In this document: positions 27,064 to 51,948 of the stretch, piece by piece | How the letters are laid out: each line of letters opens with the position of its first letter | How positions within the stretch are numbered: position 1 is the first letter of the stretch | Source: a virus | Strand: one strand, 5' to 3' | Length of the DNA: 64,000 bases | Virus record (IMG/VR): IMGVR_UViG_3300046168_000085 | Location: 16,389 to 80,388 of that record | Translations under genes and position numbers: made by a program | Notes under the pieces: generated by a model | What the model saw: only the letters and a program-made list of their open reading frames with translations | Database searches by the model: none | Told to the model about the DNA's origin: nothing

Positions 27064-27064
27064 T

Positions 27065-30075: not shown

Positions 30076-30093
30076 ATAGAATAAATATAAAAA

Positions 30094-30315: not shown

Positions 30316-30339
30316 TAACTATATATATGTACATATCAA

Positions 30340-31347: not shown

Positions 31348-31382
31348 AATAATATATATAACGATTCAGTAGTTAAAAAAGT

Positions 31383-31730
31383 TTATAATGATTTCAAATT
31401 TTGTTGTTTTAAACGATACACAAGTAACCCAAGAATAGCAAGACCAACAAACGGTAGCACATAATACCAATTAACAAAAGATTCATTAGATGCGTTCGTT
31501 TGTATTTCAGTTCGTGTTATTGGTTTAGTTTTAGTATTCTGTTTACTTGGTTGTGTTTGTTGAACTATAACAGGGTCATCAAGAACATCCGTGTTTGTAT
31601 CTACCGGTGTTGTAACTTCCGTTGGTTGTTTGGGTACTCCGAGTGTTCCACCGGACGAGTTTAATAACTTGTTTTTAATACCACACGATGTAAGTGTAGT
31701 GATGCATAGTAATATCAATAAATGTTTCAT
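31383..31730 (-). CDS. Lipoprotein with C-terminal TM helix (u-spanin-like architecture)
   Basis: Lipobox LTSC at residue 16; T/P/Q-rich linker; TM YVLPFVGLAILGLLVY followed by a basic tail. Confidence 0.55.
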   Translation of the reverse strand: MKHLLILLCITTLTSCGIKNKLLNSSGGTLGVPKQPTEVTTPVDTNTDVLDDPVIVQQTQPSKQNTKTKPITRTEIQTNASNESFVNWYYVLPFVGLAILGLLVYRLKQQNLKSL

Positions 31731-33468: not shown

Positions 33469-35954
33469 CTATTGACAACTCTCACACACTTCACCACGCA
33501 TTTTTGCTTCTAAACTGCACAATGAGGGTTCTTCAGATTCTTGTGGATTTTCTGTATCTGTATTATCTGCATTGTGTTCTTCTACATTTGATCCAGTTGA
33601 CTTTTCAATTGCACTTGCCGCCAAATTCCGCAAATAGTAAGTTGTTTTCAATCCACTTTTCCATGCGTGTGTATAAATGTCGTTCAAAAACTTCATACTA
33701 CTTTTGTCGTTGTAAAGATTCAAACTTTGACCTTGATCAATCCACTTTTGACGAGCAGCCTGCACAATCAATAAGTTTGAATTGATCTTGTTGAAATGCA
33801 GTAACATATTTTTCTTTTATCCATTGAGGAATTGAACCATTTAGTTTGCTAAGATCACCATCAACGGTTTTAACCAAGTTGGCAAGTTCTTTTGTCCAAA
33901 TTCCTTCTGCTTTCATATCATTAACAAAGTATTCGTTCATCATTGTAAACTCACCACTTAAAGTAGAATACACAAAAATAACTCCAAAGTTTGGTTCAAT
34001 GCTTTGTGAACATCCTGCGATGTAACTGATTGTTGCAGTTGGAGCAATTGCCATTGTATTGGAATTACGCATTCCTTGTTTGGCAACTTTCTTTTTGAGT
34101 TTGTCCCAATTTTTTCTAAGATTCACTTCGTCAGAATTTCCACGAAGTTTCATAACCTCTTTCCAAGTATCAATCGGAAATGTTCCTTTGCTCCAAAGAC
34201 TTCCTGTGTATGATTCGTAAGTTTCTTTTTCTACTGCCATATCAGACGAAGATTCAATTGCGAAATAAGAAATGTTTTCATAAATTTCATCACTAATACG
34301 AATTGCATCATCACTTCCGTAGTTGACACTAAACTCATAAAACATATCGTGCCAACCCATTGTTCCTAATCCAACAGGACGATGAGTCATATTACTTTTA
34401 CGTGCTTCTTCTGTTGGATAATAATTTAGATCAATAACATTGTCTAACATACGCATTGCCATTTTGGTGCTTTTTTCTAATTTATCATAATCAATAAATT
34501 TTTCACCATTTTTATCTACACCTACGTGTCGTTTCAAATTGATGCTTGCTAAATTGCAAGTTGCAGTTTCTCCGTATTCTTTAACGGTGCGTGTGCCATC
34601 ATCTGCGTGAATAGTGGGTTTGGTATGAAGAAGAATCTCTGTACACAAATTACTGCTATGCACCGTTCCTACGTGCTGATTACTATACCGAATATTACTT
34701 GGGTCTTTGAAGGTTACCCACGGATGACCAGTTTCAAAAATACTTTTCAACATTTTCTTCCAAAGGTCTTTTGCTTTGAGTTCACGAAAAACATTCAATT
34801 CTCCGTCTTGACCTTTTTTAACATATTCCCAATATTTTGTTTCAAATGCTTCACCGAAGATTTCGTGTAACTCAGGAACTTCATTTGGACTAAACAAATA
34901 CCAAGGACCATCTGCTTCTACTTGTTTCATAAACAAATCAGGAATCCAATTTGCAGTATTCATATCGTGACAACGCATTCTGTCATCACCTACGGTTTTT
35001 CGTAATGCCAAAAAGTCTTCAATGTCAGAATGCCATGTTTCAAGATATGCACATCCTGCACCTTTTCTTTTTCCACCTTGATTTACTGCAACGAGCATAT
35101 CATTGTAAAGTTTCCAAAAGTATACAGGTCCTTGATTGATTCCGTTTGTTCCTTTGATATAACTACCTCTTGCACGAAAGTTTGAGATGTCAAAACCAAG
35201 ACCACCTGCGAATTTGCTTTTTCTTGCTTCTTGCCAAATGCCATCAAAAATTCCATCAATAGAATCATCAAAGTATTTAAATAGCAACTGCTGAGTTGAC
35301 TATGAGTTGTTCCACTATTAAACAAAGTTGGTGTGGAACTAACTACATCAAAGCAACTAAGAGTTTCGTAAAACTTTAATGCGTATGCTTGTCGGTCTTC
35401 TGGTTTTTCATTTAATGCCAATCCCATTGCAATACGCATCCACATTGCTTGTGGAGTTTCCATACGACGTCCTTCTATATGCAAAAGATAACGATCATAA
35501 ATGGTTTGTATTCCAAGATACTTCCAATCTTTTTCTCTATCAATATTAAGTTTCGCACTAAGTTCACGCAAATCAAAACTTTCAAGTAACTCTTCGTTGA
35601 GAATTTCTTCACGGACTAATCTACGCATATTAGTAATAAAACTTTTACGATACTGAAGTTCAAACGCATCACTATCTACTCCTTCACCGAACACTTCTTT
35701 GTAAATTGTATTAAGAAGCATTCTCGCAGCCATATAAGCATAATTCGGTTCAAACTCAATTTTAGACCTAGCACTCATAATAAGTGATTTGTCTATTTCA
35801 GTTGTTGTAACTTTATCGTACAACTTTATTTTGGCATCAATTAATACTTCACTTGCACTTACGTTATCTAAATTTTTGATGCACGTTCGGCACATTCGTT
35901 GATTTTATCAACATTAAATTCTTCGAGTCTTCCGTTGCGTTTTTTTACTTTCAC
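33469..35954 (-). CDS. nrdA: Ribonucleotide reductase large subunit with N-terminal ATP cone, split by three indels
   Basis: [65 protein letters not shown]-terminal CESCQ. Confidence 0.95.
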
Positions 35955-36067
35955 TTGTAACCTTTTGTTAGAATTTTATATTAACATTATAATTTAATTA
36001 TATAAATATCATTTACGAAATCTATCGTAAAAATACATACTATATATACAGAATTTTTTAACCAATA

Positions 36068-37474
36068 TCAGACACTATCTTCGTTATTATATGAATTTTT
36101 ATTGTTCATTTGGTCGTACTTGGATTTAAGAAGATTCTTTGCGCCATTATCAGAATCATTCATTTCCACCATTATTTCCGCACCCTTTGTACTTTTTTCA
36201 TCATATATTTCAATAACACCCGAAGACGTGTCAACTCTACTTGGAAATGTCAAACCATCGGGTCCAAACCGATTTTTAATGACATGAAATCTACCTGTGT
36301 TACTGACTTTGTCAGTTGCTTTTCTTGATAAACTTATCACGAAAGTCTGCCGTCATTATTTTCCGATAACTATCCGCAACTTTTTGTGCTTCAATAATAT
36401 TATCTTCTAACGATGAACGACTTGCTTGTGATGCAGTCCACACAGGTACTCCGAGTTCGCCCGCAAGGCCTCGGAGATCCTCATAAATTCCTCCTTGCTC
36501 AACATAACTGTTGGCATTGTTTCCGTGATTACCAGGAGATAAAATATCTGCATAGTCAATCACAACCATATCAACCGGATATCCCATTGTATTTGCTAAA
36601 TTTGCGTGTGCAAGAATTGTACTTACTCCTACACTTTTCGTTGGATATTCTTTAATAAGAAGTTTTCCTTTAATGTTTGCTACAACATTTTTTACAGTTT
36701 CTTCGTGTTCAATAATATCTTGAAACGGAATACCTGTAAAACAACTATCATAACGAAGTCCTACATAACACTCGTTAAGTTCCATTGTATAATGCAAAAC
36801 ATTTTTACCAAGTTTCATTGCAGATTTACCAAGTGATGCAAGCACCAACTTTTTCCTCCACCTGCACTACTAATAATAACACCGAGTTCTCCTGGTCCCA
36901 AACCTCCGTTTGTTAAATCATCAATTACTTCCCATCCGGTGGCCACAGTATCACGTGCAGTTTCTGACATTCTAAGTTCAATGTCACGTGCATAGTCGTG
37001 ACCCATATCACGTGCAGTTCCTGCTTTTAATGCATCATCAACTATTCGTTTGATTGATTCGTATTGACCACCTTTGAGAAAGTCAACACTTTGCATAATT
37101 GCATTTTTAACTTTTGGTTCTTACAAAAGTCTAAAAATTCGTTTTTAACGAACTCTGTATCATTTAGATCAACTTGTGTAAATATATTTCTTAGTTGATC
37201 TATGATTGCCAGCTTTTAATGAATCAATTCCTACATCGTCACACTTAATTTTGAATACATCTAATGTTGCAGTCTTTTTGTATTTACTATAATGAGTTAA
37301 AATCTCATCAACAATCCATTTGTGTGCTTCACTTTCCCAATACTCTGTTTCAATGATATCGTGCGTTCTGTCCAAGAATTTTTTGTCATCGATTAAAGCA
37401 CGAATTGTTTTACTTTGAAATGCAGTCCCAAACTTTTGTAGGGTATCCACATTATTATTATTAGTCTCCGTCAT
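36068..37474 (-). CDS. Replicative DnaB / T4 gp41-like helicase, split by indels
   Basis: GGLGPGELG...AGGGKS, YTMEL, IKEYPT, IDYAD, WTASQ, KNRFGPDG. Confidence 0.9.
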
Positions 37475-37529
37475 ATTTAATAAACTTTATCAGATGACTC
37501 TGGTTGAATCAAGTCTATTTATAAAAAAA

Positions 37530-38609
37530 CTACGAATTACTTGTAATTGCATAGTTGTTCAAAATGGTCCAAGTTTCCATAAGCCAGTTATGGTGATTAG
37601 GAAACGCGGCCCATAGTTGGTCTTCTGCGAACTTTTTGCTAAATTCAAATTTATTAAGTTCGGTTACAGGAGAATCTACATGATCAAATATTTTCGTTTG
37701 CATACTTGCAGGAAGAATACTATCTTTCAATTGCATTAAATCATAGTTTCGTTTAAGTAAACTCTGATTATCTTCTTTCAAAAAGTTTTTATACAAAGGC
37801 ATTTCTTTGAGTTTATCTTCTGAAATTTTTATTAAATCGTCTCTGCTTATAAATTGTTCGGTTGCAAGTTCAGGAAAAGCAGTTTTAAGTTTCTTTTCAC
37901 CTATACCTTTGATCCCATCTATATTATCCCCACGATCACCATCAATTGTTCTGTATAACAGAAAATTATTTGGATGAATTCCGTACTCTAACGAAACTTT
38001 TTCAGGAGTATAAACTGTTCGTTTGGTTGGACTATAAACAGTTACATCGTTATCTACCAACTGAAGAAAATCTTTGTCAGTACTCATTATTGTACACTTT
38101 TTACCAAGACCACTAAAATATGATCGTGCTAATAATGCCATAACATCATCTGCTTCTACATTATCCATACATATAGTAGTAACAGGAAGCATATTCAAAT
38201 ATTGTATCAATTTAACTATCTGATACTTCATCGAACTTGATTCTTCGGTTTGATCTAAGTCTAAACTCAACGCACGATTTACACGAAACCGAACATTCTT
38301 TTTCATTTTATAGTCAGGAAAGATTTTACGTCTTCTTGCACTCCCACCCTTTCCATCAAATACAACGATACATCGTGTGGGTTTACGCAAACGAATTGCG
38401 TGACCTATGCTCTTTAGAAACCCGGTATATCCACCTATATGATCACCATTGTCGTTGGTGGTCGGATACATACTCCAAACACGCATAAACGTGTTCATAC
38501 CATCAATTAAAAGGGTATCAGAATTTATATTCCGGTCTACATCTAGTTCTTCTTTTTGTTCTTGAGAGAATTCTTGAAATAAACTAAATATCTTTTTTTT
38601 ATCACTCAT
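37530..38609 (-). CDS. 5'-3' exonuclease / flap endonuclease (T4 RNase H-like)
   Basis: LIDGMN, VFDGKGGS, YK, EADD, STDKDFLQL, GDRGDNIDGIKGIGEK. Confidence 0.92.
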   Translation of the reverse strand: MSDKKKIFSLFQEFSQEQKEELDVDRNINSDTLLIDGMNTFMRVWSMYPTTNDNGDHIGGYTGFLKSIGHAIRLRKPTRCIVVFDGKGGSARRRKIFPDYKMKKNVRFRVNRALSLDLDQTEESSSMKYQIVKLIQYLNMLPVTTICMDNVEADDVMALLARSYFSGLGKKCTIMSTDKDFLQLVDNDVTVYSPTKRTVYTPEKVSLEYGIHPNNFLLYRTIDGDRGDNIDGIKGIGEKKLKTAFPELATEQFISRDDLIKISEDKLKEMPLYKNFLKEDNQSLLKRNYDLMQLKDSILPASMQTKIFDHVDSPVTELNKFEFSKKFAEDQLWAAFPNHHNWLMETWTILNNYAITSNS

Positions 38610-39762
38610 TTGAAACAGATGCTAATTCTGCGTCTTCAATTTCTGCATTATCCGTGAACTCAACATCTTCATCTACTACACTATTTGCTGATTCATATTC
38701 CATTACAATGTTATCACAAATATGCTGATATAATTCTTTTTTTAGTTCTATGTCTTTCAACATTTCAGGAAATTCTTTTGCCATAAACTTATAATCTTTT
38801 CCTTTGGAGTCTGTAAATGAATAATAAGCACCACCTTGTTTTAAGATTTTGTGTGTTTTCAATGTTGTTATCCAACTTCCGATATCATCAATACCACGAT
38901 TAAAATAAATTTCAAATGATGCTTTTCGTTGTGGAGGACCCATTCTGTTTTTTACAATAGTTGCTTCACATTTTCCACCGATAACTTCTGTGGTTGCACC
39001 TTTTTTAATTTGACCCATACTTTTCAGACGAATACGAACACTTGCGTGAAACGCAATTGCTTTACCACCACTCGTTGTCCACGGATCACCAAACATAACT
39101 CCCATCTTTTGACGAAGTTGGTTAGTGAATACCAATGCAATTTTTTGTCTTCCAATTGTTGAAGTCAACTTACGCATTGCCTTACTAATTAAAATTGCTT
39201 TAGTAGTTGCATATCCATCTTTCGCATAATCTGCCGCCATTTCAATTTTAGTTGATGCAGCCGATACACTATCTGTTACAATCGTTACAAGTTTATCTTT
39301 GTTGCTTTTACGTACCGTTGCGATGATATTGTCAATGGTTGCAAAAATATCTTCCACCGTATCAACGTGGACATACAATAACTTTTCAGTATCAACACCA
39401 ATTGCTTTTAGATACTCAATGGATACACTTGTCTCGGTATCTATTAATACCGCAACACCTCCCTTCTTTTGAGTTTCCGCAAGAATGTGTCCAGATACTA
39501 AACTTTTTCCACTTTGTTCAAGTCCAGTTAGTTCTGTGATTCGGCCTGTGGGAATTCCACCATTGGGACGATTTGAGATTGCAAGATCAAGAAGACTACT
39601 GCCAGTTGAAATCCAATCTGATATTAGCGATGGATCATCACCTTCACTTAAAAAGAAAGCAACTTTGCCTTCATCTTTATATGCAGTATTTAAACTATCT
39701 GCAAGTACACTTGCTAAATCATCGGACTTGCTTGTTGCTTTTACTTCTTTTTTCTTTGCCAT
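38602..39762 (-). CDS. recA: RecA/UvsX-like recombinase
   Basis: STGS.LLD, GRITELTGLEQSGKS, IDTE, DSV, NQLR, SGGKAIAFHASVR, KNRMGPP. Confidence 0.93.
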   Translation of the reverse strand: MAKKKEVKATSKSDDLASVLADSLNTAYKDEGKVAFFLSEGDDPSLISDWISTGSSLLDLAISNRPNGGIPTGRITELTGLEQSGKSLVSGHILAETQKKGGVAVLIDTETSVSIEYLKAIGVDTEKLLYVHVDTVEDIFATIDNIIATVRKSNKDKLVTIVTDSVSAASTKIEMAADYAKDGYATTKAILISKAMRKLTSTIGRQKIALVFTNQLRQKMGVMFGDPWTTSGGKAIAFHASVRIRLKSMGQIKKGATTEVIGGKCEATIVKNRMGPPQRKASFEIYFNRGIDDIGSWITTLKTHKILKQGGAYYSFTDSKGKDYKFMAKEFPEMLKDIELKKELYQHICDNIVMEYESANSVVDEDVEFTDNAEIEDAELASVSNE

Positions 39763-39789
39763 ATTTAATAATTTCTATTTTGTGAACTT

Positions 39790-39818
39790 GTGTGGTGAGG
39801 GAGTTGCCCTCACCACAC
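39790..39818. other. Perfect 12-bp GC-rich hairpin between ssb and recA, with no U tract
   Basis: gtgtggtgaggg-agttg-ccctcaccacac. Confidence 0.7.
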
Positions 39819-39838
39819 TTATAGTTCTTTTTACTTCT

Positions 39839-40672
39839 TTAAGACTTAAACAACTCTTCAAAAGCAGCCTCAACATCTTCCGTAGAAGTTGCGTTTGGTT
39901 TGCTTTGCTCAGAAGTTGCACTTGCAACTTTTGGTTGCTTCACTTCTGTTTGTGTTTCTTCAACAACAACCTTTTCATCCGAACCAACCGATTCAGCAGG
40001 AGGAGCATCTTCTTCAGATTCTCCACTCACCCACTTTTCAAGTGCCTCTTTCAAATCATCATAACTGAGTTCTTGATATATCTCAGTGATTTCTGCTTGA
40101 TTGTTAGCAACTCCATCCGCAATGTTTTTGTTGTCGGATACAGGTGATGTGTTGGGTTTAACACGAATGTTTGTCTTTGGAAATGAACGACCAGCCTCTT
40201 CAGCAGAAAGAAATTCGATTGTAATGTCTCTTCCGTTGGTTGGATCGGTAATGTCTCCATAATCGGGGTCTGCGATGACACCTAGTAGTTCTTGGTAAAC
40301 TTCTTTACCAAATCCCCAAAAACGAACTCCTTCTGCTTCTTCACCACGAACGATGACAGGAACAAAAGTTCTCATCTTTGGCATTAAGGAACGTCCCATA
40401 CGATAATCATCTTTATCTCCACTGCGAGTCAACTTTTCTGCGAACTCTACGATTGGGTCAGGACGACCAAAAGACTTGGGAGATAGATAAGTCCGATTGT
40501 TGATTCCATAGTGGAAAAACAACTCGATAAACGGATTATCTGGTTGATGCATATAAGGTACGATACGAACCTGTTGTTTACCCGGTTGGGGTTTCCATTG
40601 ATAATTCTTACGATTATTTGTCTGTGACAAATTATTTAACTTTGCTTTAATTTTATCTAGGTCAATTGCCAT
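39839..40672 (-). CDS. T4 gp32-like single-stranded DNA-binding protein
   Basis: WKP..G...VRIVP, PFIELFFHY, YGDITDP..GRDI, acidic tail ending FEELFKS; located next to recA. Confidence 0.85.
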   Translation of the reverse strand: MAIDLDKIKAKLNNLSQTNNRKNYQWKPQPGKQQVRIVPYMHQPDNPFIELFFHYGINNRTYLSPKSFGRPDPIVEFAEKLTRSGDKDDYRMGRSLMPKMRTFVPVIVRGEEAEGVRFWGFGKEVYQELLGVIADPDYGDITDPTNGRDITIEFLSAEEAGRSFPKTNIRVKPNTSPVSDNKNIADGVANNQAEITEIYQELSYDDLKEALEKWVSGESEEDAPPAESVGSDEKVVVEETQTEVKQPKVASATSEQSKPNATSTEDVEAAFEELFKS

Positions 40673-40739
40673 TTTTTATTCCTTAATTTAGTATTTGTTA
40701 TTATTATTCTTAATATAATACAACTTGTTTCGTATTTCG

Positions 40740-40990
40740 TCAATCAGAATTGTGTACATCAAGAAGTTTTTCCGCCATTTTCAACGAAATTGTAAAAGTC
40801 AGAAGCAATTTCTAATACTTCTTGTGTAGTTGGAAGTGGTGGTATTTCTAAGGGAACTATCTTCAAATCTGGCACGACTTTCCAACTCTTCTTTTTCCAT
40901 ATGCCATGTTTCCCATACCATCTCTTTTGCGTTTTTTAATACCTCTAATCGAATGCCGTAGGCATTGTATTTTTTATCTTCATTACTCAT
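40740..40990 (-). CDS. Conserved-looking small phage protein (indel near 40853)
   Basis: NAYGIRLEVLKNAKEM... continues in another frame as PPLPTTQEVLEIASDFYNFVE. Confidence 0.6.
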
Positions 40991-41075
40991 TTTTTTAATT
41001 ATTATTTAGTCAATTTTAGTTACTATATATAAATATATTTTACTTGAAGTTTAAGCACATTTCAAGGTAAAAAAA

Positions 41076-41835
41076 TTAACTTTTTTTGACTATTCTTTCC
41101 TTAGAAATTCGCACGGCATCAGCATTAATATCACATCCTATAAAGTTGCGATTCAACGACTTGGCAACTGCAAATGTAGTTCCACTACCGCAATAAAAAT
41201 CTGCAACTACATCATTTTCATTGCTACTTGCTTTGATGATTCTTTCTAAAATCTTAGGATGTTTCTCACTATAATAGTCAGTTGCTTTTTTAACTTTTAA
41301 TCCTGACGGAATATCATCCCAAACATTTGTAGGTATCGTTCCGATTTTTAATTTCTCTTCGGTTATGTTTGGTCTATCTTGTTTTTTGCTGATAACTGAC
41401 TTGTATGGAACTCTTATATCAAGGTCATTAAAAATAAATTCATCCGACTTTGTATACACTATAATGTAATCGTGTTTTTTTGCAAACTCTCGTTTACCCC
41501 TTCCACCGATATTAAATTTTACTACAATCTGATTTCTGAAATTTTCGTATCCAAACACATTATCCATTAAAACTCGTATCCAATGAACTATACGTAAATC
41601 CATTTGCAAATAAATCGTTCCATTAGATTTTAATACTCGTTTCATTTCATGTAAACGAGGAACATAGTGGGATAGAATCGTGTTGTGGTCAGTTTCTAAA
41701 TCCTGATAATCTTTAAACTTTTTACCCGTTCCCGTACAAAACATCACAATAAATTAAATTTATAGACTCGGTATCTATTCTACCAAGTAACTCTAAATTG
41801 TCCAAGTGATATATTTGATTTGTGTTTGGATTCAC
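41076..41835 (-). CDS. Beta-class amino DNA methyltransferase with atypical motif IV (indel near 41732)
   Basis: IYHLDNLELL...INLIYCDVLYGTG (restored), KHPKILERII, VADFYCGSGTT, FIGCDIN. Confidence 0.85.
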
Positions 41836-43405
41836 CTATCAAATTTTATTACCTCGTATCGTTTCATTTCTCCGTTGTTGTAACGATACCTAACCTCTAC
41901 TTCAACGATTTCTTTTCTGTCACCATATCCTTCACTCTCTACATCGTAAGTTAGTATATTGATAGGTTTTTTCATAATCTCATGCAGATATGCCATTGTA
42001 CCCTGAAGCATATTTTATGTCAAGTGGTCGGCCATCAAAATCATGTCTAAGAAGAATTTCAGTATTTTTATACTTCATATTTTCCATATAATAAACAGGT
42101 CTACCCATATTGACGTGTCGTTCAACTAACTTTTCTTTTATTTTTTTGTGGTCTTTACTAACAACTACATATTTGTTGGTTGATTTATCAAGTGCATATT
42201 CAAAGTATTCATACTTTTCACAAAAGTCACGTGTAAAAAATTCATTAAGAAATGTTACATCATTGTACAATTCACGAACTTCAAAAAGTTTTTCACGACC
42301 AAGACCGAGATGTTTATTCCAATATCTTTTTTCGTCTCCGTTGTCGCAATTTTCATATTCTTTCCCAAACTTTCCTTTATCCCATCTATCTTCAATGTCA
42401 CGCAATAAAGTGTTTCCTAGTTTATATGGATTGTTCATATTGTATTTTCCACCAAGAACTCCTGCGTGGTGTTTTGCATAATCAAAAATTCCTTCGTCTC
42501 CTGCAAAGTTACAACTTGCCATAATAAATGAATCCCAATAACTTGCCCAACCTTCGTTGAGAACTTTCGTCATTCCCTGTGGACGATAGTAAATAGATTC
42601 ATCACGAATCATACTAAGAATATTTTGTTGCCAAGGTTCTAAACGACAATGATTAATAATCATTAGCATAATATCACGTTCAGGTCGTAAAGGGAATTTG
42701 TTTTCTGCTAACTTTGTACGTTCTTCTCTGTCTCGTCTTTGCTTTTCAATATAATGAGGAGGATTAACATATTTGTCCATGTACTCTTTAGTATCTAAAC
42801 GAGAAACGTGTTCACGTGGTTGACGGTCTTCAAAGTTGAATTTAGTTGCTTTCTTTAAATTACTTTCACGATAACAAAGTGATGGATCAATTAAATCATC
42901 AATTGCAAGAGCCCGCATTCAAAAAGTCTTTAACTTTTTTGCGGCCGAAACGATCCATATACATACGAATTTTATCACTATGATTTGCCATCACATTCAT
43001 CATATTACGATTCGTGTGTTTGAACATAATATTATTCTTGAAGAAATCACTATGTGCAGTTGCGTGTGCAACAACAGTTAGATTATCAACGATAGGATTG
43101 TTTCGTTGAAGGTACATATAAGTTGGATCGGTATTTACAACCATCTCATAAATCTTACCCATACCAGAATGATACTGATGATGCAAGTTGCTCAAATTGT
43201 TGTCCGAAATTAAATGTGGATAACGAACAGGAAATCCACCATACGCCGCAATCTCAACTATTTCGTCAGCATCAAATTCTTCAATGCACAACGGATATGG
43301 ATCAAGTCCATTATCATAACACGCCTTTAGGCATTCAGGTATAAGAGCAGCCAATTCTGGACACACTCCTTCGTTTAAACTATCTACTTCCCATGCAATT
43401 CCCAT
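41832..43405 (-). CDS. spoVR: SpoVR / YcgB family protein, split by indels
   Basis: AAYGGFPVRYPH, KIYEMVVN.DP, VVAHA.AHSDFFKNN, PERDIM, LEPWQ, YYRPQGMTKVLNEGWASYW, NPYKLG. Confidence 0.92.
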
Positions 43406-43409
43406 AATA

Positions 43410-44565
43410 TTAAAAAGGTACTTCTTCTTCAGCAGGTGTTAACAACTTCTGAAGTGTTCTGAATACGTCGGAGTTGCTATCCAACGACGCGGTTACTATT
43501 GTTTTTGGATCAAGTTCACCACTTGATAATTGTGATTCAATGTGTGGAAGAAATGTTGCCCAACTTCTTACTGCTTTAACTTCTGTTATTCCTATTAAGA
43601 TTTGCATATGTTTGCATTTTTGTTAAATAATCAACACACAAATCATTATCAGAACCAAAGTTTTCTCCATCACTTAAATAAAATACATAAATGTTCCATT
43701 CGTTCAATGGAAATGCTTTTTCTACAATATCGTTGACTAAATGAAATGCACTACTAATTTGTGTTCCACCTCCACTTTTGTATTTGTAAAACTTTTCTTG
43801 ATCAACTTCTTGAGCATGATGATCGTGTACAATATATTTTACTTGAGTTTCTTGATAAAATCGTTGAACCCAGTTATCAAGATACCAACATAGTTCACGA
43901 ATCAATGCACGTTTTGGTTCGTCCATACTTGCAGAGATGTCTGATACAAAAAATATGGCTGCATTCGTATCAGGTACTTCAACTGAACTCCAACTTCTAA
44001 ATTCTTTATCATCTTTAATTGGATAAAAGTTGGATAAATCTTCTGGATTGTAATCTTCCGATGAAATTAATCGTTTGAAAGCATTTTTGAGTGTTTTTCT
44101 TTTATGCAATAAACTATTATTACCAACCTTAGCAATCCGATTCCATTTGATTTTTTCTTTTACCATTTCTCCATTGTCTTTTGGTTTTAGATTTGGTAAT
44201 TGAAGTTCTTCTCCGATCATATCAAAATAGGCATCCATACTGATTCCGACATCTATTTCATGCCCATCACCTTCTCCTTCACCACCTTCACCTGGCTGAG
44301 ATCCTTGTCCTCCTTGTTGTTGAGGTCCTTCTCCTACCTCATCACCTACATCTGCTTCACCGTTACCAATCCCACTCCCATCAGAAGGCTGTCCATATCG
44401 GAAACTTGGTAACTCTACATGAGGAACTTTTACTACAACAAAGTCCTTTCCTCTTCTGGAAATTCTTTGTCCACTCTTAATGTGCTTTTTAAGTTTATCG
44501 TCAACATTTCCTTTAACGATATCCCTATATTCACCGTGGTCTTCTCTGATTCTACGAGATGGCAT
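43410..44565 (-). CDS. yeaH: YeaH/YhbH (DUF444) VWA-like protein (indel near 43597)
   Basis: P.FRYG, Gly-rich linker, EELQLPNLKPK, DISASM, FY...SGGGTQISSA, WNIYVFYLSDGEN. Confidence 0.9.
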
Positions 44566-44585
44566 AATGATGTATCCCTTGACTA

Positions 44586-46685
44586 TTAATCTTCGTCTTC
44601 GTCTGCATCACCCTCTGCAAAAATACTTCCAACATATGTAAGAACATCTGAAGCACTATCTTCATCATATCCAAACGAAGTAATAAGACGTTGCTTCAAT
44701 GCATCAATCTTTTCAAGAAGTTCCTTGTCAACAACAGTTGCAGTATCTTGTGCAAGAGCAGATAACTTGATGCTATCTTTAGTATCTTCAAACAACTTCT
44801 TTTCAAGTGCTTTGTAAAGTTGCTCGTTTGAGTCATACTTAAACTCTTTACCCTTAGCGGCAAGTCCACCCATATAGTTCATAATTTCTCTACGGAAATC
44901 GTCTTTCATACCATTGGAAATGCCAATCTTTTCTTCAATACTACGCATAAGTTGTTCATTGGCAACTTCTTCTTTACCTGTAACTTGATTTGTAACTTTT
45001 TCGTCTTGAATATAAGCAACAATGTTATCAATGTAGTTGGTGCAAGTTGCTTTTATTGCTTCTTCACTGCTACTAAGTGCTTGTTGAACTTCTCGTTTCA
45101 CGATTCTGTCATATTCCTTTTCTACGAGTTCAAGTCGTTCCATCAAATTCTTTTTGTCATCTTCACTATTGAATCCACTATAACTTTTAAGTCCTTCACG
45201 AATTTGTGCAAACAACATAAATGGATTCAAACTTTTTGCACCCATTCTTGGATTTACAATTGCGTTGGAAAATTGATTCTGAATAAATCTTGCGGATACT
45301 CCACCATATAATCCTTCTTTTGGTGATTCATCTTGCATTTCTTTCACGTGTTCATCTGTGAATCCGTGTACACTTTGACCATTGTAAAGTTTTGCTTTTT
45401 GAATGATGCTCATATCTTGCTTGGAACTTTCTTCTAAACGACTTACAACTGCGAATAACGCAGCCAGATAAGTTGTATGAGGAGCAATATGCTTATTAAC
45501 AGTTGTACCATTATAGAAGTGATCATAAATCTTTTTCTCTTCATCAATTTTCAAAAGATAAGGAATATCAATCTTGATGGTTCTATCACGAAGTGCTTCC
45601 ATAAATTTATTGTTAGTTAACTTTTCAAACTCAGCATTATTGGTATGCCCAAGAATAACTTCATCAATTGGTACCTGATTAAAACGACGTGGTTTGACAC
45701 GATGCTCTTGGGTTGCACCAAGTAAATCGTACAAAAATTCAGTTTGTAACTTAAGAATCTCTTGAAATTCAATCAAACCACGATTAGATACTAGGAATTC
45801 TCCGTCAAAATCAAATGCACGGGGGTCACTTTCACTACCATATTCTGCTAACTTACGATAATTAATATCACCAGTAAGTTCGGTTGCATCTTGTGATTTC
45901 TCATCCTTTGGTTGGAATGTTCCGATACCTACACGATTCTTTTCCGACAAAACAACTCTTCTAACAACAATGTGATCAAGAACCTTGCGGTAATCCCCCC
46001 CATGCATTTCCATTAATTGGTTGTAATAAAATTCATTAACAGGATTTAATGCTCCATCTAATTTTAATTTATATGCATCCTCAGATAAATTTTTATTCAA
46101 ATTAGATATAATTTTATTACGAACTTTTCTTGGTAAAAGTTTTAATGGCTCTTCATTCATCGGACAATTGACAAGAACATCGTTACCATCTTTATCAGAA
46201 ACCCTCCAACTAAAGGAATATAAAGCACCTTCATCGGTTTTTGTATATTCTTCTAATCCTTTTTTCAATGCTGTAACGATTGTAGACTTGCTACTACCAA
46301 CGGGTCCGTGAAGAAGAATAACACGTCTTTCTGGACCATAGTGACGACTTGCACTTTTAAGAATATCCATGAACTCCATTAAACTCTCTTCTAAACCATA
46401 AATTGAAATATCTCCAAGGCCTTCAAAAAATTTATATTTTACATACTTTCTCTTGCAATATGTGAACTCGTCAGTTCCATGAGAAATTACCATATCATAT
46501 AATCGTTGATATGAATTTCGTGCAATTGTGGGACTCTCTTCCACCAATTTAATATAATCCCAAAAGGTTCCTGTCCAATTTAAAGATTTGTATGTTTCAA
46601 TTGCATCATCATTGTCACATCTTATCAATGATTCAAGTGCAGAATTTTCCGTGTTAGTTTCTTTTTGTCGTTTTTTATTTTCCAT
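44586..46685 (-). CDS. prkA: PrkA / YeaG family AAA+ serine protein kinase/ATPase
   Basis: LLHGPVGSSKS, CPMNEEPL, GIGTFQPKDEKSQDATELTG, DPRAFDFDGE, NRGLIEF, EALRDR, HIAPHT. Confidence 0.93.
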   Translation of the reverse strand: MENKKRQKETNTENSALESLIRCDNDDAIETYKSLNWTGTFWDYIKLVEESPTIARNSYQRLYDMVISHGTDEFTYCKRKYVKYKFFEGLGDISIYGLEESLMEFMDILKSASRHYGPERRVILLHGPVGSSKSTIVTALKKGLEEYTKTDEGALYSFSWRVSDKDGNDVLVNCPMNEEPLKLLPRKVRNKIISNLNKNLSEDAYKLKLDGALNPVNEFYYNQLMEMHGGDYRKVLDHIVVRRVVLSEKNRVGIGTFQPKDEKSQDATELTGDINYRKLAEYGSESDPRAFDFDGEFLVSNRGLIEFQEILKLQTEFLYDLLGATQEHRVKPRRFNQVPIDEVILGHTNNAEFEKLTNNKFMEALRDRTIKIDIPYLLKIDEEKKIYDHFYNGTTVNKHIAPHTTYLAALFAVVSRLEESSKQDMSIIQKAKLYNGQSVHGFTDEHVKEMQDESPKEGLYGGVSARFIQNQFSNAIVNPRMGAKSLNPFMLFAQIREGLKSYSGFNSEDDKKNLMERLELVEKEYDRIVKREVQQALSSSEEAIKATCTNYIDNIVAYIQDEKVTNQVTGKEEVANEQLMRSIEEKIGISNGMKDDFRREIMNYMGGLAAKGKEFKYDSNEQLYKALEKKLFEDTKDSIKLSALAQDTATVVDKELLEKIDALKQRLITSFGYDEDSASDVLTYVGSIFAEGDADEDED

Positions 46686-46692
46686 AACCATT

Positions 46693-46721
46693 ACCTTATA
46701 TTTTTTTTGTTAGTGAGTCAA
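46693..46721 (-). promoter_or_regulatory. sigma70-type promoter for prkA-yeaH-spoVR (leaderless geometry)
   Basis: TTGACT-N17-TAAGGT, then 7 nt, then ATG at 46685. Confidence 0.55.
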
Positions 46722-46729
46722 ATATTAAA

Positions 46730-47140
46730 TCAAATTTTAACAATTTTAAAAAGTTTTGTATAAACAAACTTACATGATTCGTCTGAGTTTGTCAATAAAA
46801 TGCAATTCTTATAATCACTCCAATTTACTTTATAGAATGGATTATCTATTCCATTATTTAAAGTTCTAATTAATGAATTTAATGAATTTATAGTATACAA
46901 TGTATTACTGTCTTTTTTTCTGTGAACGCTAATTGTATCCATATAAAAATTATTTATATTTATATTACTTTTATTTACATTGTATGTCAACATCAATGAA
47001 TCTAGATTATCCATGTCGTGTAATACATATACTTTTCCAAACACTACTTCATAATGTGTCTGAATATTCTTGATATCAAGATCATACCTTTTAATATTTG
47101 AAAAGGTGCATAATAATTGAGCATTAATTTTTGTAACCAT
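46730..47140 (-). CDS. Conserved hypothetical large-phage protein
   Basis: LLCTF...TYNV...VHRKKDSNTLYTINSLN...W..YKNCILL. Confidence 0.7.
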   Translation of the reverse strand: MVTKINAQLLCTFSNIKRYDLDIKNIQTHYEVVFGKVYVLHDMDNLDSLMLTYNVNKSNININNFYMDTISVHRKKDSNTLYTINSLNSLIRTLNNGIDNPFYKVNWSDYKNCILLTNSDESCKFVYTKLFKIVKI

Positions 47141-47171
47141 TTATATTACAGATAAATATGCAAAAAAAAAC

Positions 47172-48470
47172 TCAAACATTAAATTCTACCATGTCACCAT
47201 AATTTGCTCCTACATAAGTTTTTACTGGAAACTTATCATCAGGATTCATAATTTTAACTAAATCTTTTAGTAAAAGAAACTCTTCTTTAGGTAAATCAAA
47301 TAAAAAAGCATCGTAAGTATATAATATACATTTTGTTTTTTTATTATCTAAGAAATTATTAAGACTCATTAAAATTTTACAATTTCGTTCTGTCTCAGCA
47401 GCCTGTAATAGATAATTAAATACCACATATGGTTTTTCTTTTTCACGAAATAAGCATGAGTTAAGTCTTCGTTTATAGTACCAAGTCTCGACATATTTAT
47501 TTTTATTATATTTAGACCATGTAGTTTCCACAAAATCCGATACTTCCTTCATAAAAGGAACATTATTTTTTATGTCATCATCAATTCCACCGTATATTAA
47601 ATTGAATGTAATTTTTTTTGATAGTGAGTATTCTTCTTCAGAAAGATTTGATTTTCCGTAGTATAACTGACCAAGATACTCATGCACAGATGTATCTGGT
47701 AGTTTAAAATTTATATAATTTCCAAATAATCTAAGATGATAACTTTCGTAATCCATCATAATAATTGCTCCATCAGAATAACGACTTGTAAAGCAATCTC
47801 TCTGACCTTCAGATTTATTTAAGGCTGCGTAATTGACATTCCCAAATCTATTGCTAGGTCTAGATGTAGGTGTGAACATATTGTATTGCGAATGAACTAA
47901 ATTATCTGCGTTGACCAATGATAAATCACCCAAATTAAATTCGTGTGTGTATAATCCATTTTTTTCAATTTCAAACAAAGCATCGGTAAAATCTTTTTCA
48001 AAATGAAATGTGGAATCTTCAATTTGAGTGGTTGTAATTTGGTATAAAATATTTTTCAAGGTATCGTTGAACTTTTTTAAAATCATCATAATCGGAACTG
48101 ATCTTATGTCACGACTTTTAAACTTATTATATGAAATTGTTGTAAGTGTATTTGAGTAAATGCACCAACCAATGTCTTTACAATTTTTAAAATTGACATG
48201 GTACAAACTACTTTTTCTATCAATTATGTATTTAATTGAATTTGTATCTTGAATCAATTTAAGTATCGAACAATCAATATTTACACAATCAGGATGATTA
48301 AATGAAATTACAAATGTTTGTTTTGTTTCAATGTGATGTATGATAAGTACAACGGGTGAATCATTGGCTGAGTGTATTGTATCGTTATCAATAAATTGTA
48401 TAAAGCAACTACCTGCTTGAAGTGTATTTATTGCATATTTGACGGAATCGGTTGACTCTAGGAAGATCAT
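47172..48470 (-). CDS. Truncated family A DNA polymerase
   Basis: T.TSRPSN, motif A DYESYHLRL, motif B KKITFNLIYG, NYLLQA.ET, motif C-like LYTYDAFLFD. Confidence 0.8.
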   Translation of the reverse strand: MIFLESTDSVKYAINTLQAGSCFIQFIDNDTIHSANDSPVVLIIHHIETKQTFVISFNHPDCVNIDCSILKLIQDTNSIKYIIDRKSSLYHVNFKNCKDIGWCIYSNTLTTISYNKFKSRDIRSVPIMMILKKFNDTLKNILYQITTTQIEDSTFHFEKDFTDALFEIEKNGLYTHEFNLGDLSLVNADNLVHSQYNMFTPTSRPSNRFGNVNYAALNKSEGQRDCFTSRYSDGAIIMMDYESYHLRLFGNYINFKLPDTSVHEYLGQLYYGKSNLSEEEYSLSKKITFNLIYGGIDDDIKNNVPFMKEVSDFVETTWSKYNKNKYVETWYYKRRLNSCLFREKEKPYVVFNYLLQAAETERNCKILMSLNNFLDNKKTKCILYTYDAFLFDLPKEEFLLLKDLVKIMNPDDKFPVKTYVGANYGDMVEFNV

Positions 48471-48477
48471 ATCACCG

Positions 48478-48506
48478 ATTTTAGAATATAACACTTAGCA
48501 CGTCAA
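48478..48506 (-). promoter_or_regulatory. sigma70-type promoter for the polymerase gene (leaderless geometry)
   Basis: TTGACG-N17-TAAAAT, then 7 nt, then ATG at 48470. Confidence 0.65.
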
Positions 48507-48943
48507 TCTTTTTTATAAAATTCCATTGGGTTTTTTATCCCAATTCTAAGATTTTTTTGTTCTTTTGCTAGTTCTAATTGCCTTTCATTGAATGGAATCA
48601 CACCTTGGTATTGTAATATCCCCTCGTCATATTGGTCGTATAGGGAACCGGTAATTTTCCAAGCAATATATGTGCAAGTGTAAAATGGTGACACATTAGC
48701 ATTCTCAAAATACTCTTCTTTTGAAATTTCAATTGGTGTGGCATTTATATTATTAGACTTTCTTGTAAAATATCTAAAAAACATTCCTTTATTGTAATCA
48801 TCTTCAATTAGATTTGGATAATATGCAGATGGAATATACTGGTAAATACTCTTAGAAAAATTTGCTTTAGAACCTGCCAGTAACTTATATGTTTGTTCTG
48901 TAACATACTTTTCTAATTTTCTATCAACCGAATCTTCCATCAT
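48503..48943 (-). CDS. Hypothetical protein in the baseplate module
   Basis: Translationally coupled to 48940..51948; DY.KG.F.RYF...WKITG pattern. Confidence 0.6.
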   Translation of the reverse strand: MMEDSVDRKLEKYVTEQTYKLLAGSKANFSKSIYQYIPSAYYPNLIEDDYNKGMFFRYFTRKSNNINATPIEISKEEYFENANVSPFYTCTYIAWKITGSLYDQYDEGILQYQGVIPFNERQLELAKEQKNLRIGIKNPMEFYKKD

Positions 48944-51900
48944 TCATTCTCACGTGAATTAGTATCAACTGCATTTGGACAAAATTGTGCTGTCAAACTT
49001 GTAGACCAATCATTATTAGATAAACTGTGTTTTATATTTGTAACTCTCCACAATCCATTCATATAATACTTAGTTGGTACACCTGTACAATTAAACATAT
49101 CCCACAACCGTATTCCCTCAATTCCATCCAGTTCAAGTGATAATTCAATTGTATCAAGTGGCATATTGTATTTGATGCAATTTTTTGGATTTTTATCTTT
49201 AGTAGTTCTACGTTGTGCTCTACCCTGATTTGGTTCTACAAATTCTACGTCAACAACATATGTATCTGAAAATGTGTTTCTGTTATCGTCAAAAACCGAA
49301 GCATTAAATTGATTCTCATCGTTAATTGAAACACCTTCCAAAGTTTTAACATTTTCATCGATGTCTACTTCAATCCCCACGATAAATTTTGAAGCATCTG
49401 CAATTTCGGTTTCTTTTTTTTCTTTATCAGCTGATAAGGTACCTGCGTCTTTACTTGATATTCTCGCTCGTTTTAAAATTCTGTCACTTTGACCACGTGC
49501 ATAAAACGCAGAGTCAGGATCCGTGGGGTTACTGAATAATACTTGACCTGCAATGTCTCCAGTTATACTTACATCTGTGTTCATACTTCTTACGATACTA
49601 TTTTTTTTATGAGCATGAAATATAAATGCCTTTTTTTTCTTTTGAATGTCATATATGTTGTTTGAAGTGAATTTTCTGTCTATTATTTTTGTGACACAAT
49701 TTGATGAGTCGTTTGGGTCGTCACCCACTAAGTCAAAATCCCAAATTCCACCAGATGCGTTACTCATTTTTTGTAATATTGTTTTTAACATTGCGTGAGC
49801 TGTGAAATCTGATTTTACTGCATCTTTAATCACTTCATAGTTAACATATAAATCTTGTATTCTTCCAGAGTATCCTTCACTGCTTATTCCATTATCCTCG
49901 TCTAAATCTTCATAATCTGGAAAAGGTCTTATTGGAAAATCTCGTTCATGTGACCAGTGACGGTGTAAGGTCATCAATCTATGTAGATCATCACGTGGAG
50001 ACTTTTCAAGTGCTTCTTCTAGTGTTCTTATATTAGCAATGCCACTTTCTGATTTGACTGCTCCAATGAATGCATTTCTTGCCTGCGAATATTTTTTTTC
50101 TTTATCAGAGTCCGTAAACTTGTTATATATCACAGATTTATTTAATGGTTGACTTGAATCATCAAATCCGGCAATTCCAATAGTAGAATTTTTAAAGTTT
50201 TTAGTATTTGTTCTAGGTGACATTGCATTTGGTATAAGTAAAACGTTTCCATCTAATGATTTTATATTTGGATGAGCAACGCATCGTGAATTTGTTACAT
50301 CAAATTTAAAAACCGTTGCATTTGTGTCCTCAGACTCACGTGCAAAATAAGCATTAAAAATATCTATTAACCACCCAAATGTTATATATTTACCATCATC
50401 GGTTGAATTTGCCATATATTGTTTATTATCATCTACATTGATATCCCACTTACCTGAATATCCAAAACTAAAATATCTACCGTTTCCTTTAAGTAAGCCA
50501 AACATATTATTTGTATATGTGTTATATGAACTTGTAAAATCCGCAAGTGGATTTCCGATTCCAAGAAAATGATCATCTGGATTCTCATCTTGTTCTTCGA
50601 TAGTTTCAAGTAAATAGGTATCTACATACTTAAATAAGTCTATTATATTTTTATCATCGCTTACAACTTCACCCTCTGTCTCTTCATCGGTACCTGCGGA
50701 CGATGATGCGGAGTTTTCTAACTGACTCATTAGATAAGATACACTTGTAATTTCAACACTACAATCATATCCACCGTCGTCTCTTAAAGAATAATTAAAA
50801 TTTGAAATCATCCCTAATACAAATGAATAATTACCACGACCTTTTTTAAGTTGTCGTTTTACAGCAAGTGAGTTATTCCATAAGTTTACAAGACCACTGC
50901 CCTCTTCGTACATATATTCTTGTTCATCATTAAAATTAGATATATTAGGCATAATATAATCAGGATCGGATTGTCTTATAGAATTTACTTTATTTTTTTC
51001 ATCAGATGATAAATCCTTTCCTTTTTTAAATCTTGGAGGTCTTCCAACTTCATCTTGTGCCAATAATACATCTTTCGGAAAAAAATTCCAACCCCATTCT
51101 ACACAAATTGTATTACCTGGTTGAAAAAAATATGGATCGAGATAATCAACCTGACTTCTGCTCCAGGCAACAAACTTGATTGTAGTTTTTTTATGATTAG
51201 TTGCGACTCCCATGTCTTCGGATTCAATATCAGTAATACCCGGTGCAGGACGATGTTTGAAATCTGGTTCAATTAAATAATGTTGTTCTCCAAGTACGTC
51301 ATAACCAAGAATATTTGGAGGAGTTGAGTGATTACCGGCACTTCCAAAACCATAATTTTCATTAAAATTATCAACACCATGCAATATGAAACCCTCTCTT
51401 TTTTTTCCATCTTGATTCAATGCAATACCGTTTGATGTAACACGACACCAGGATGATTTTGGACCACGATATGACTCACGAATTGTTTGTTCTTGACGAA
51501 AGAATTTTTCTATATGAAGTCCAGTTTCTTTTTGACCATTTTTCAAAACATAACTATTTAAAATATTTTGTGATGCTTCCTCACCAAAACTATCATTTGT
51601 ATAATTTAATCCAACATTTCCTTCTCTTCTTATCAATTCGGCACGTACCCAATTTCTAATATGTGTCATTGTTGGATATGCATTATGAGTTCTTTCATCG
51701 TATCCAATAGACTCAGGTTCGTCATCTACCAAAGGAGTTGGATTTATTGACATTAGCTCTGTATTTGCTTCTTCTTTTGTTGCAAATAGTGGTTTGGCAA
51801 CATTTTGAACCGCATCTACTGCATCACCCAGAAAATCTCCAACAGAAGACCCTATCTTATCAAATAAACCACCTTTTGCTGTATCAAACGCATTCTCAAT

Positions 51901-51948
51901 ATTCCCACTGTTCTTGAATGAATTTATTGCTGAATCTAAAAAACCCAT
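48940..51948 (-). CDS. Large baseplate hub / tail structural protein
   Basis: Position after the tail-X-like gene; P.PGITDI, PG.TICVEWGW, GGYDCSVEI, LELDGIEGI, VTNIKHSLS..W.T.L. Confidence 0.65.
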   Translation of the reverse strand: MGFLDSAINSFKNSGNIENAFDTAKGGLFDKIGSSVGDFLGDAVDAVQNVAKPLFATKEEANTELMSINPTPLVDDEPESIGYDERTHNAYPTMTHIRNWVRAELIRREGNVGLNYTNDSFGEEASQNILNSYVLKNGQKETGLHIEKFFRQEQTIRESYRGPKSSWCRVTSNGIALNQDGKKREGFILHGVDNFNENYGFGSAGNHSTPPNILGYDVLGEQHYLIEPDFKHRPAPGITDIESEDMGVATNHKKTTIKFVAWSRSQVDYLDPYFFQPGNTICVEWGWNFFPKDVLLAQDEVGRPPRFKKGKDLSSDEKNKVNSIRQSDPDYIMPNISNFNDEQEYMYEEGSGLVNLWNNSLAVKRQLKKGRGNYSFVLGMISNFNYSLRDDGGYDCSVEITSVSYLMSQLENSASSSAGTDEETEGEVVSDDKNIIDLFKYVDTYLLETIEEQDENPDDHFLGIGNPLADFTSSYNTYTNNMFGLLKGNGRYFSFGYSGKWDINVDDNKQYMANSTDDGKYITFGWLIDIFNAYFARESEDTNATVFKFDVTNSRCVAHPNIKSLDGNVLLIPNAMSPRTNTKNFKNSTIGIAGFDDSSQPLNKSVIYNKFTDSDKEKKYSQARNAFIGAVKSESGIANIRTLEEALEKSPRDDLHRLMTLHRHWSHERDFPIRPFPDYEDLDEDNGISSEGYSGRIQDLYVNYEVIKDAVKSDFTAHAMLKTILQKMSNASGGIWDFDLVGDDPNDSSNCVTKIIDRKFTSNNIYDIQKKKKAFIFHAHKKNSIVRSMNTDVSITGDIAGQVLFSNPTDPDSAFYARGQSDRILKRARISSKDAGTLSADKEKKETEIADASKFIVGIEVDIDENVKTLEGVSINDENQFNASVFDDNRNTFSDTYVVDVEFVEPNQGRAQRRTTKDKNPKNCIKYNMPLDTIELSLELDGIEGIRLWDMFNCTGVPTKYYMNGLWRVTNIKHSLSNNDWSTSLTAQFCPNAVDTNSRENE

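Follow-up and report, generated by a model that had tools for sequence, protein, structure and literature searches.

A locus in which a bacterial stress operon stands between the replication genes of an uncultured virus raises the question of whether the operon belongs to the virus, whether it is functional there, and what it could do for an infection. The locus carries prkA (yeaG), yeaH (yhbH) and spoVR (ycgB) on a 64,000-nucleotide (nt) stretch of DNA, bases 16389-80388 of the 80,388-bp IMG/VR record IMGVR_UViG_3300046168_000085 (class 'provirus', estimated completeness 51%); this whole stretch is called the window below, and positions are counted from its first base. The reading favoured here, with a probability of about 0.55, is that the three genes are a functional, vertically inherited auxiliary operon in an uncultured tailed phage of aquatic origin with a large genome (~200 kb), and that they act in protein remodelling or degradation. 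The cellular yeaG-yeaH-ycgB genes are widespread and have been tied to starvation-induced bulk proteolysis (2026).

Gene content of the locus

The three genes, in the following referred to as the trio, and the features directly around them are:

46693..46721, minus strand: conserved element within the gap of 38 nt that precedes prkA, TTGACT-N17-TAAGGT, followed by ATG-GTT-ATG
44586..46691, minus strand: prkA/yeaG, 701 amino acids (aa), AAA+ ATPase domain and PrkA C-terminal kinase-like domain, open reading frame (ORF) intact
43410..44565, minus strand: yeaH/yhbH, DUF444, a vWA domain with a metal ion-dependent adhesion site (MIDAS), in two frames (329 + 65 aa)
41832..43405, minus strand: spoVR/ycgB, split over three frames (168 + 312 + 59 aa), with a further short stretch out of frame
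41076..41835, minus strand: DNA N6/N4 methyltransferase, GTG start, closely behind spoVR, broken by a 1-nt insertion at 41733

Pfam searches identified all of these genes. PrkA matched PF08298 (AAA_PrkA) over residues 42-425 (E 1.3e-84) and PF06798 (PrkA C-terminal) over residues 430-686 (E 4.5e-70), and YeaH matched PF04285 (DUF444) within 43576-44565 on the minus strand (E 7e-62). The first piece of SpoVR (42899-43405, minus strand) covers positions 7-156 of the 407 in the PF04293 profile (E 2e-40) and the second (41980-42918, minus strand) covers positions 154-405 (E 4e-56), so that the two pieces together span the profile at near full length; the methylase matched PF01555 over 41076-41747 (E 1.9e-42). 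The trio is co-directional in the order prkA-yeaH-spoVR, with gaps of 20 nt and then 4 nt. These matches, the common direction and the replication genes on both sides confirm the arrangement given in the preliminary description, which had been made from the sequence alone and had placed the trio in operon order between a polymerase and a single-stranded DNA-binding protein (SSB)/recA block. The trio sits among core phage genes.

The encoded proteins retain nearly every residue that is invariant in their families, namely 117 of 118 in PrkA, 36/36 in YeaH and 47/47 in SpoVR when read across its frames; the sole PrkA exception among the invariant columns is R694E, at 44610-44618. PrkA aligned over residues 30-693, that is at full length, with the 'serine protein kinase' of PDB entry 9xip (E 7e-209), for which a literature search found no describing paper, and its Walker A motif GPVGSSKS is intact in that alignment. 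The MIDAS of YeaH is complete, its residues D209, S211, S213, T268 and D299 being both invariant in the family and present here.

Occurrence of the trio in phages

A scan of IMG/VR with PrkA gave 167 confirmed stretches, and two conserved peptide patterns gave at least 179. Gene order was surveyed in the first 80 IMG/VR loci, of which 74 reach far enough, and in all 74 PrkA is followed by YeaH and then SpoVR, so that the survey of viral genomes proposed in the preliminary description bore out the co-occurrence of the three genes; the same order was seen in most bacterial loci examined. Approximately 30 independent IMG/VR contigs are colinear with window positions 40000-48000, at 73-85% DNA identity. 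Among GenBank phages, PrkA is present in 17 records, comprising 11 from Thermus phages, four from curated huge phages, one from Ralstonia phage RsoM2USA and one from an Enterobacter phage.

The trio is not new in phages and has been annotated there since 2006, the year of deposition of Thermus phage YS40, in which ORF56 is a conserved bacterial protein (DUF444-like), ORF57 is SpoVR and ORF59 is a serine kinase. In RsoM2USA, ORF28 is a SpoVR family protein and ORF30 is PrkA (PMC8504454), and spoVR is the most abundant 'sporulation' auxiliary gene of an oxygen-minimum-zone virome (PMC8940887). The trio, for which the preliminary description had allowed that it might already be both common and characterised in phages, is therefore common (YS40, RsoM2USA, the huge phages, and in IMG/VR at least 179 stretches) but still uncharacterised there: literature searches gave no paper that studies it in a phage. 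The present record is a solid but ordinary, incremental example of a known, unstudied phage-borne trio.

Compared with the cellular prkA(yeaG/spdA)-yhbH(yeaH)-spoVR(ycgB) module, the phage trio has the same three Pfam families, order and tight spacing, with colinear full-length proteins, the nearest cellular form being the long-PrkA type of Myxococcota, Planctomycetota and Bdellovibrionota (51-57% PrkA identity). It differs in being viral, in lying within a replication region, in having its own conserved upstream element and a separate long-stemmed clade, and, in the subclade of the window, in the DNA methylase coupled behind it. The cultured tailed Thermus phages phiYS40 and TMA (also MN1, phiLo and Lalka) likewise carry DUF444-like, SpoVR and PrkA genes as neighbours; in contrast to the window, they are arranged as yeaH-spoVR-X-prkA, with an additional gene of 616 aa, and their PrkA is ~32% identical and on a very long branch. 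The Thermus trio was either acquired separately or split off very long ago. The huge phages of Al-Shayeb et al. (LR756511, LR745206, LR756502, LR756504), their IMG/VR relatives and RsoM2USA share the prkA-yeaH-spoVR order and large genomes with the window lineage, whereas the huge phages form a clade of their own (group B, PrkA ~49% identical to that of the window), often have extra genes between the members and lack the methylase; PrkA of RsoM2USA is ~27% identical to that of the window. The Enterobacter record (phage LAU1, MN688132.1, 30.8 kb) has its YeaG-annotated gene at 190-1821, at the very start of the record; rather than a phage gene, it may be host sequence at the end of a contig.

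Inheritance of the trio and selection on it

A search of 5.8 billion protein clusters found ~80 relatives of PrkA at 72-93% identity, all metagenomic. Beyond this clade identity falls to at most 57%, and the named cellular proteins found there are from Kofleriaceae, Haliangium and Planctomycetota. Among the genomes of 185,579 species, one per species, there was no member of the PrkA clade (best match 56%) and no related prophage.

A PrkA tree was calculated with FastTree from 124 sequences, including the 80 nearest bacterial ones; its support values are local, and it does not settle the order of the deep branches. In this tree the clade of the window (groups A and A2) is monophyletic with 100% local support and a long stem, the huge-phage group B is monophyletic (96%), and Thermus phage YS40 lies far away. 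Trees of YeaH and SpoVR recovered the same A+A2 and B clades, each with 100% support, and the monophyly of the window's phage clade, for which the preliminary description had suggested a tree test, thus holds in all three gene trees. Because the PrkA, YeaH and SpoVR trees agree and the viral groups are separate, the trio has, on phylogenetic grounds, been inherited as a unit within phage lineages and was acquired by phages more than once. A further viral group, C (L076, L077, L082), nests within the bacteria beside the PrkA of Candidatus Fervidibacter, with a YeaH ~30% identical to that of the window clade, and is a separate capture of the trio, probably a more recent one. One clade-A2 record of 222 kb is rated complete, and contigs with close PrkA relatives are up to 290 kb long.

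The ratio of nonsynonymous to synonymous substitution rates (dN/dS) is 0.03-0.07 for the trio genes, the same as for gp32, RecA, FEN and DnaB. Selection on the trio as strong as on replication genes would mean that the three proteins work as one unit that is useful within the few hours of an infection, and the phage copies, being compact and diverged with their invariant residues retained, are good material for structural and biochemical work.

Origin of the frame breaks

Uninterrupted frames for all three trio genes are absent from the record, in which yeaH has one and spoVR five frameshifting insertions or deletions (indels), and are present in the lineage. The breaks were mapped by tblastn and by MAFFT alignment with nine relatives, and private indels were counted over positions 35000-48000 with eight relatives. 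In yeaH there is one private insertion (43599); in spoVR there are a deletion at 43215, insertions at 43184, 42914 and 42003, and a deletion at 41854; and in the methylase there is one insertion (41733). These indels are absent from every aligned relative (8/8), and the genes are intact in all relatives examined, with lengths of 702 (prkA), 384 (yeaH), 521 (spoVR) and 251 aa (methylase).

Over these 13 kb the window has 19 private indels of a length not divisible by three, compared with 0-5 in each relative. The helicase, a single 470-aa ORF in the relatives, has private indels in the window at 37210, 37109, 36840 and 36341, and at 35-38 kb of the window there are 7 private indels versus only 4 private substitutions. 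Several of the events are GG to GGG insertions, and compensated pairs of indels 4-100 nt apart are found at 43215/43184, 37210/37109 and 44610-44618. The last of these lies in prkA, where the window has 'gcagagggt' and five of six relatives have 'gcgagaggt', the sixth also encoding Arg, and the R694E exception is best read, by this alignment, as a deletion plus a GG to GGG insertion 4 nt apart. When read through the indels, the window copies of the trio have dN/dS values of 0.044-0.071, equal to those of intact relatives. The indels are most likely sequencing or assembly errors and not biology, because dN/dS is unrelaxed, the invariant residues are kept, indels outnumber substitutions, and GG to GGG insertions and compensated pairs are found; the preliminary description had considered that the spoVR and yeaH indels might be genuine lesions, which does not fit private changes at unrelaxed dN/dS. 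The trio genes are almost certainly intact in the actual virus. What weighs against errors is that the indels cluster, with none in 5.2 kb (the prkA ORF, FEN, RecA and gp32) versus 7 in the 1.9 kb of yeaH-spoVR-methylase. Such clustering is not predicted by a uniform error process, and could come from uneven coverage or strain mixing.

Programmed frameshifting was ruled out, as the indels are private to one record, run in both directions, include compensated pairs and correspond to plain ORFs in the relatives. The ribonucleotide reductase (RNR) large subunit also has private indels (35878 and 35273), with another at 36076 just past the helicase, and is intact in the relatives; a check of the other gene calls in the record for similar breaks is advisable.

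The coupling of the methylase to spoVR by a GTGA overlap, given in the preliminary description, is literally present (GTG 41835-41833, TGA 41834-41832) but is a product of the private deletion at 41854, which shifts the spoVR frame on to a TGA that overlaps the GTG. In 10 relatives the spoVR stop lies 3 to 5 nt before the conserved methylase GTG, and from this comparison we infer that the true spoVR stop here is at 41841-41839.

Two alternatives would deny the trio a role in a live virus. The record's copy could be genuinely decayed, that is, derived from a dying provirus or defective variant with real frameshifts in yeaH, spoVR, the methylase, helicase and RNR, which would agree with the IMG/VR class 'provirus', with the uneven spread of the indels and with most of them lying outside long homopolymers. 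This is very unlikely: the retained invariant residues and a dN/dS equal to that of intact relatives speak against it, an excess of private indels over private substitutions at 35-38 kb is not a product of real decay, the compensated pairs resemble local base-calling noise, and no related prophage is found among the 185,579 species genomes. Furthermore, the 'provirus' label recurs where records are cut at a block of cellular-like genes, and the linear contig of a relative crosses this block. Alternatively, a bacterial trio could have been joined to phage DNA by mis-assembly or host contamination, given that the trio is a typical cellular operon and that the genome is rich in cellular-type metabolic genes. 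The chance of this is close to negligible, as both junctions are common to the ~30 independent contigs, which come from different metagenomes, the region is uniform in GC content and strand, and the trio is in its own clade, at most 57% identical to any cellular homologue. The earlier judgement that contamination was unlikely stands on this viral synteny and on a clade without a member in the species genomes.

Conserved element upstream of prkA

The motif TTGAC(T/G)-N16/17-ATAAGGT has both boxes kept in 16 clade-A relatives, while its spacer and flanks diverge, and in more distant clade-A members the boxes stand 9 nt before an ATG equivalent to the second ATG of the window. Judged from these alignments, the element before prkA is genuinely conserved. 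It could serve as a -35/-10 pair from which a near-leaderless mRNA starts, or consist of a -35-like box followed by a Shine-Dalgarno sequence (ATAAGGT); yeaH is preceded by AAGGGA at a similar distance. A generic scan of the region for sigma-70 promoters and terminators showed no enrichment over shuffled sequence, and TTGAC-N17-20-AAGGT is not recurrent in the window (2 matches versus 0.85 expected). Of the promoter that had been assigned to the trio, the conserved two-box element is thus retained, but the generic scan did no better than shuffles and ATAAGGT is perhaps a Shine-Dalgarno sequence.

Predicted structures of YeaH and SpoVR

An AlphaFold2 model of YeaH (predicted local distance difference test (pLDDT) score 75) matched vWA domains in Foldseek (E 1.6e-8). 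The corresponding model of SpoVR has a pLDDT of 82 and a predicted template modelling score of 0.78, and when it was compared with representative structures by VIA-align, 49 of the 50 best chains were of zincin type, nearly all metallopeptidases. These matches have Z scores of 5.5-9.8 over 120-216 residues, which is in the 'middling' range of the tool for helical proteins, the best having a Z of 9.8 over about 190 residues. The zincin-type chains are from M1, M3, M4, M9, M30, M32, M36, M49, M61, ACE, DUF885, MATCAP and YbeY, and also include an M1-like TFIID subunit and one unclassified putative hydrolase. Searches of the PDB with phmmer gave no match for SpoVR or YeaH, the ESM Atlas gave no usable match for SpoVR, and a literature search found no study of a SpoVR fold.

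In the sequence of SpoVR, H114-x3-H118 is invariant and lies on a helix after two strands, and helix 280-297 carries 'NEGWASYW', of which N283, E284, G285 and A287 are invariant. We take NEGWASY to resemble the third-ligand motif (NEGxxxY-type) of M1 peptidases. SpoVR is not classed as an active zincin peptidase because the catalytic Glu of HExxH is replaced by Ala or Val; it could act as a substrate-holding pseudo-peptidase, or use another base. The predicted zincin-like core is a property of the whole SpoVR family and not only of the phage copies, an intact SpoVR of a relative being available at 13289-14851 of locus L005. The C-terminal alpha/beta domain of SpoVR (about residues 400-517) is without family assignment.

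MoxR-type AAA+ ATPases usually have a vWA/MIDAS protein as partner. The trio resembles FtsH, in which AAA+ and an M41 zincin are fused, and MoxR-vWA pairs (for example RavA-ViaA) in combining AAA+ with vWA/MIDAS and predicted zincin-like parts, a likeness of possible mechanism and not of family membership. It differs from them in that the phage functions are spread over three polypeptides, H[AV]xxH stands in place of HExxH in SpoVR, PrkA has a kinase-like C-terminal domain, and the complex is only proposed.

Proposed function in the infected cell

In E. coli, YeaG (renamed SpdA) is required for the starvation-induced, largely nonspecific degradation of cytoplasmic protein, and this degradation supplies amino acids and, via amino-acid catabolism, ATP (2026 study; PMC13684143). 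PrkA of B. subtilis was reported to have no detectable kinase activity and to degrade casein in an ATP-dependent reaction that needs Walker A (PMC9512850). In six bacteria yeaG, yeaH and ycgB are each other's best co-fitness partners, and their mutants have an advantage on arginine and are affected in the use of other amino acids, including serine (10.1101/072470).

By analogy with this cellular module, PrkA would be the AAA+ ATPase, YeaH its vWA/MIDAS partner (adaptor) and SpoVR a zincin-like subunit, and the three genes would be transcribed together with the replication genes from the conserved upstream element. Jointly the proteins may form an ATP-driven machine that remodels or degrades protein, and in the infected cell this machine would turn on bulk turnover of cytoplasmic protein as the cellular module does in starvation. 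The released amino acids would be used for phage protein synthesis and, via arginine, serine and fatty-acid catabolic genes of the phage, for energy. Complex formation, proteolytic output, expression timing and the link to the catabolic genes are inferred. Several results weigh against a proteolytic machine with a zincin-like subunit. The SpoVR model had nothing below E 0.3 in a Foldseek search of the PDB, the SpoVR alignment, used as a profile against PDB sequences, gave no match, and the catalytic Glu of HExxH is missing, with H[AV]xxH in 58 of 58 sequences and Ala or Val at position 115. In addition, PrkA of B. anthracis had negligible protease and kinase activity in vitro (PMC13001217).

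The preliminary description had proposed that the phage controls host dormancy or persistence with the trio. In the form of a signalling hypothesis, PrkA would be a Ser/Thr kinase that, with YeaH and SpoVR, reprograms the host into or out of a dormant or stationary state for infection or persistence. For E. coli YeaG, autophosphorylation and the phosphorylation of AceA have been reported (as cited in PMC9512850), the three proteins were proposed by Price et al. to belong to a conserved signalling pathway (10.1101/072470), yeaG is important for surviving starvation for nitrogen and carbon (PMC13684143 and its reference 69), and the kinase-like C-terminal domain is fully conserved in the phage PrkA. 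Despite this we regard signalling as unlikely, if still a serious candidate, given that no kinase activity was found for PrkA of B. subtilis or B. anthracis and the kinase-like P-loop is degenerate (PMC9512850, PMC13001217). The operon moreover stands among replication and metabolic genes with no lysogeny genes seen near it, vWA and zincin-like partners suit a remodelling machine better than a kinase cascade, and sporulation names are uninformative for non-sporulating marine hosts, the module being widespread in non-sporulating bacteria. The dormancy proposal, which rests on those names, is weaker than protein turnover, which is favoured by YeaG-dependent proteolysis, the report of PrkA as a protease and the zincin-like SpoVR model. 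A different use of the same parts would be an AAA+/vWA chaperone that assembles, matures or metal-loads a complex of the phage or the host, such as enzymes of replication or nucleotide metabolism, in the manner of MoxR-vWA pairs. An AAA+ with a vWA/MIDAS protein is the architecture of MoxR-type maturation systems, the MIDAS of YeaH is complete, and the operon lies between the polymerase and the SSB, RecA, helicase and RNR genes; as the known requirement for the cellular module is in bulk proteolysis (PMC13684143) and not in a maturation step, a chaperone role is doubtful.

Catabolic genes on the same contig

Protein turnover as the function of the trio would acquire a partner in catabolic genes of the same contig, which were assigned by Pfam:

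11006-11977: AstB, arginine succinyltransferase (AST) pathway
12603-13601: AstA, AST pathway
13573-14955: class III aminotransferase
14960-16165: M20 hydrolase
16168-16944: aldehyde dehydrogenase, C-terminal fragment, frameshift probable
21768-23120: L-serine dehydratase (SdaA)
23120-28312: acyl-CoA dehydrogenase, FadB-type enoyl-CoA hydratase/3-hydroxyacyl-CoA dehydrogenase and thiolase, a beta-oxidation set

The serine dehydratase and beta-oxidation genes form one tight run (21768-28312). This fad/sdaA block belongs to the phage, because the untrimmed linear contig of a relative (G004) carries it contiguous with the trio region, running from there through the block to an end at the homologue of window position 18.5 kb.

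The position of the trio beside genes for arginine, serine and fatty-acid catabolism suggests a testable route from host protein to phage energy, in which protein breakdown triggered by the trio would be coupled to these pathways. A more far-reaching and tentative version is a 'starvation mimic', in which the trio would trigger bulk degradation of host protein and AST, serine dehydratase and beta-oxidation would draw ATP and nitrogen from the products, so that the virus could replicate in ocean or lake cells starved of nutrients; SpoVR would be a long-missing subunit of the YeaG/SpdA system, either proteolytic or substrate-gating.

The 'provirus' records of three relatives (L085-L089; G001-G003; 152-170 kb) end within ~1.8 kb of the same homologous point, which corresponds to window 29666-31470, the edge of the cellular-type metabolic block. 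The common end suggests automatic trimming of a host region and not an integration site.

Genomic neighbourhood

Every ORF of the trio region is on the minus strand, and GC content is even across the window (0.28-0.38). The features around the trio, of which the polymerase part, SSB, RecA, exonuclease and helicase were assigned by Pfam, are:

59669-60631: T4-type baseplate protein
54148-56583: 811-aa ORF with a tape-measure-like match
47172-48494, minus strand: C-terminal part of a family-A DNA polymerase (PF00476, E 1.8e-8), upstream of the trio
46730-47140, minus strand: 136-aa ORF with no assigned function, upstream of the trio
39839-40672, minus strand: gp32-like SSB, downstream of the trio
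38602-39762, minus strand: RecA, bacterial-type, downstream
37530-38609, minus strand: 5'-3' exonuclease (FEN), downstream
36077-37474, minus strand: DnaB-like helicase (DnaB_C), downstream, in three frames
33737-35895: RNR large subunit, beyond the helicase, split over two frames

A megablast search of the window against GenBank phages gave no match, and no cultured phage is closely related to it. When isolates are compared by their gp32-like protein, Microcystis phage Mel-JY01 (48%) and Flavobacterium phages (38%) come nearest, and neither is among the PrkA matches. The methylase stands behind the trio only in the window's own subclade and is absent downstream of it in groups A2, B and C; it is probably outside the function of the trio. 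A second, longer protein with a methylase domain (20254-21723, 489 aa) has the DNA N6/N4 domain only at its C-terminus, its N-terminal 340 residues being unassigned.

For the polymerase part and the 136-aa ORF, synteny is kept in the relatives at an identity of only ~50%. Directly upstream of the polymerase part (48503-51948) are ORFs of 146 aa and 1002 aa with no Pfam or PHROG match, which are syntenic in the relatives at only ~33% identity, and the polymerase may be split, or accompanied by a large protein of no known family, in this region.

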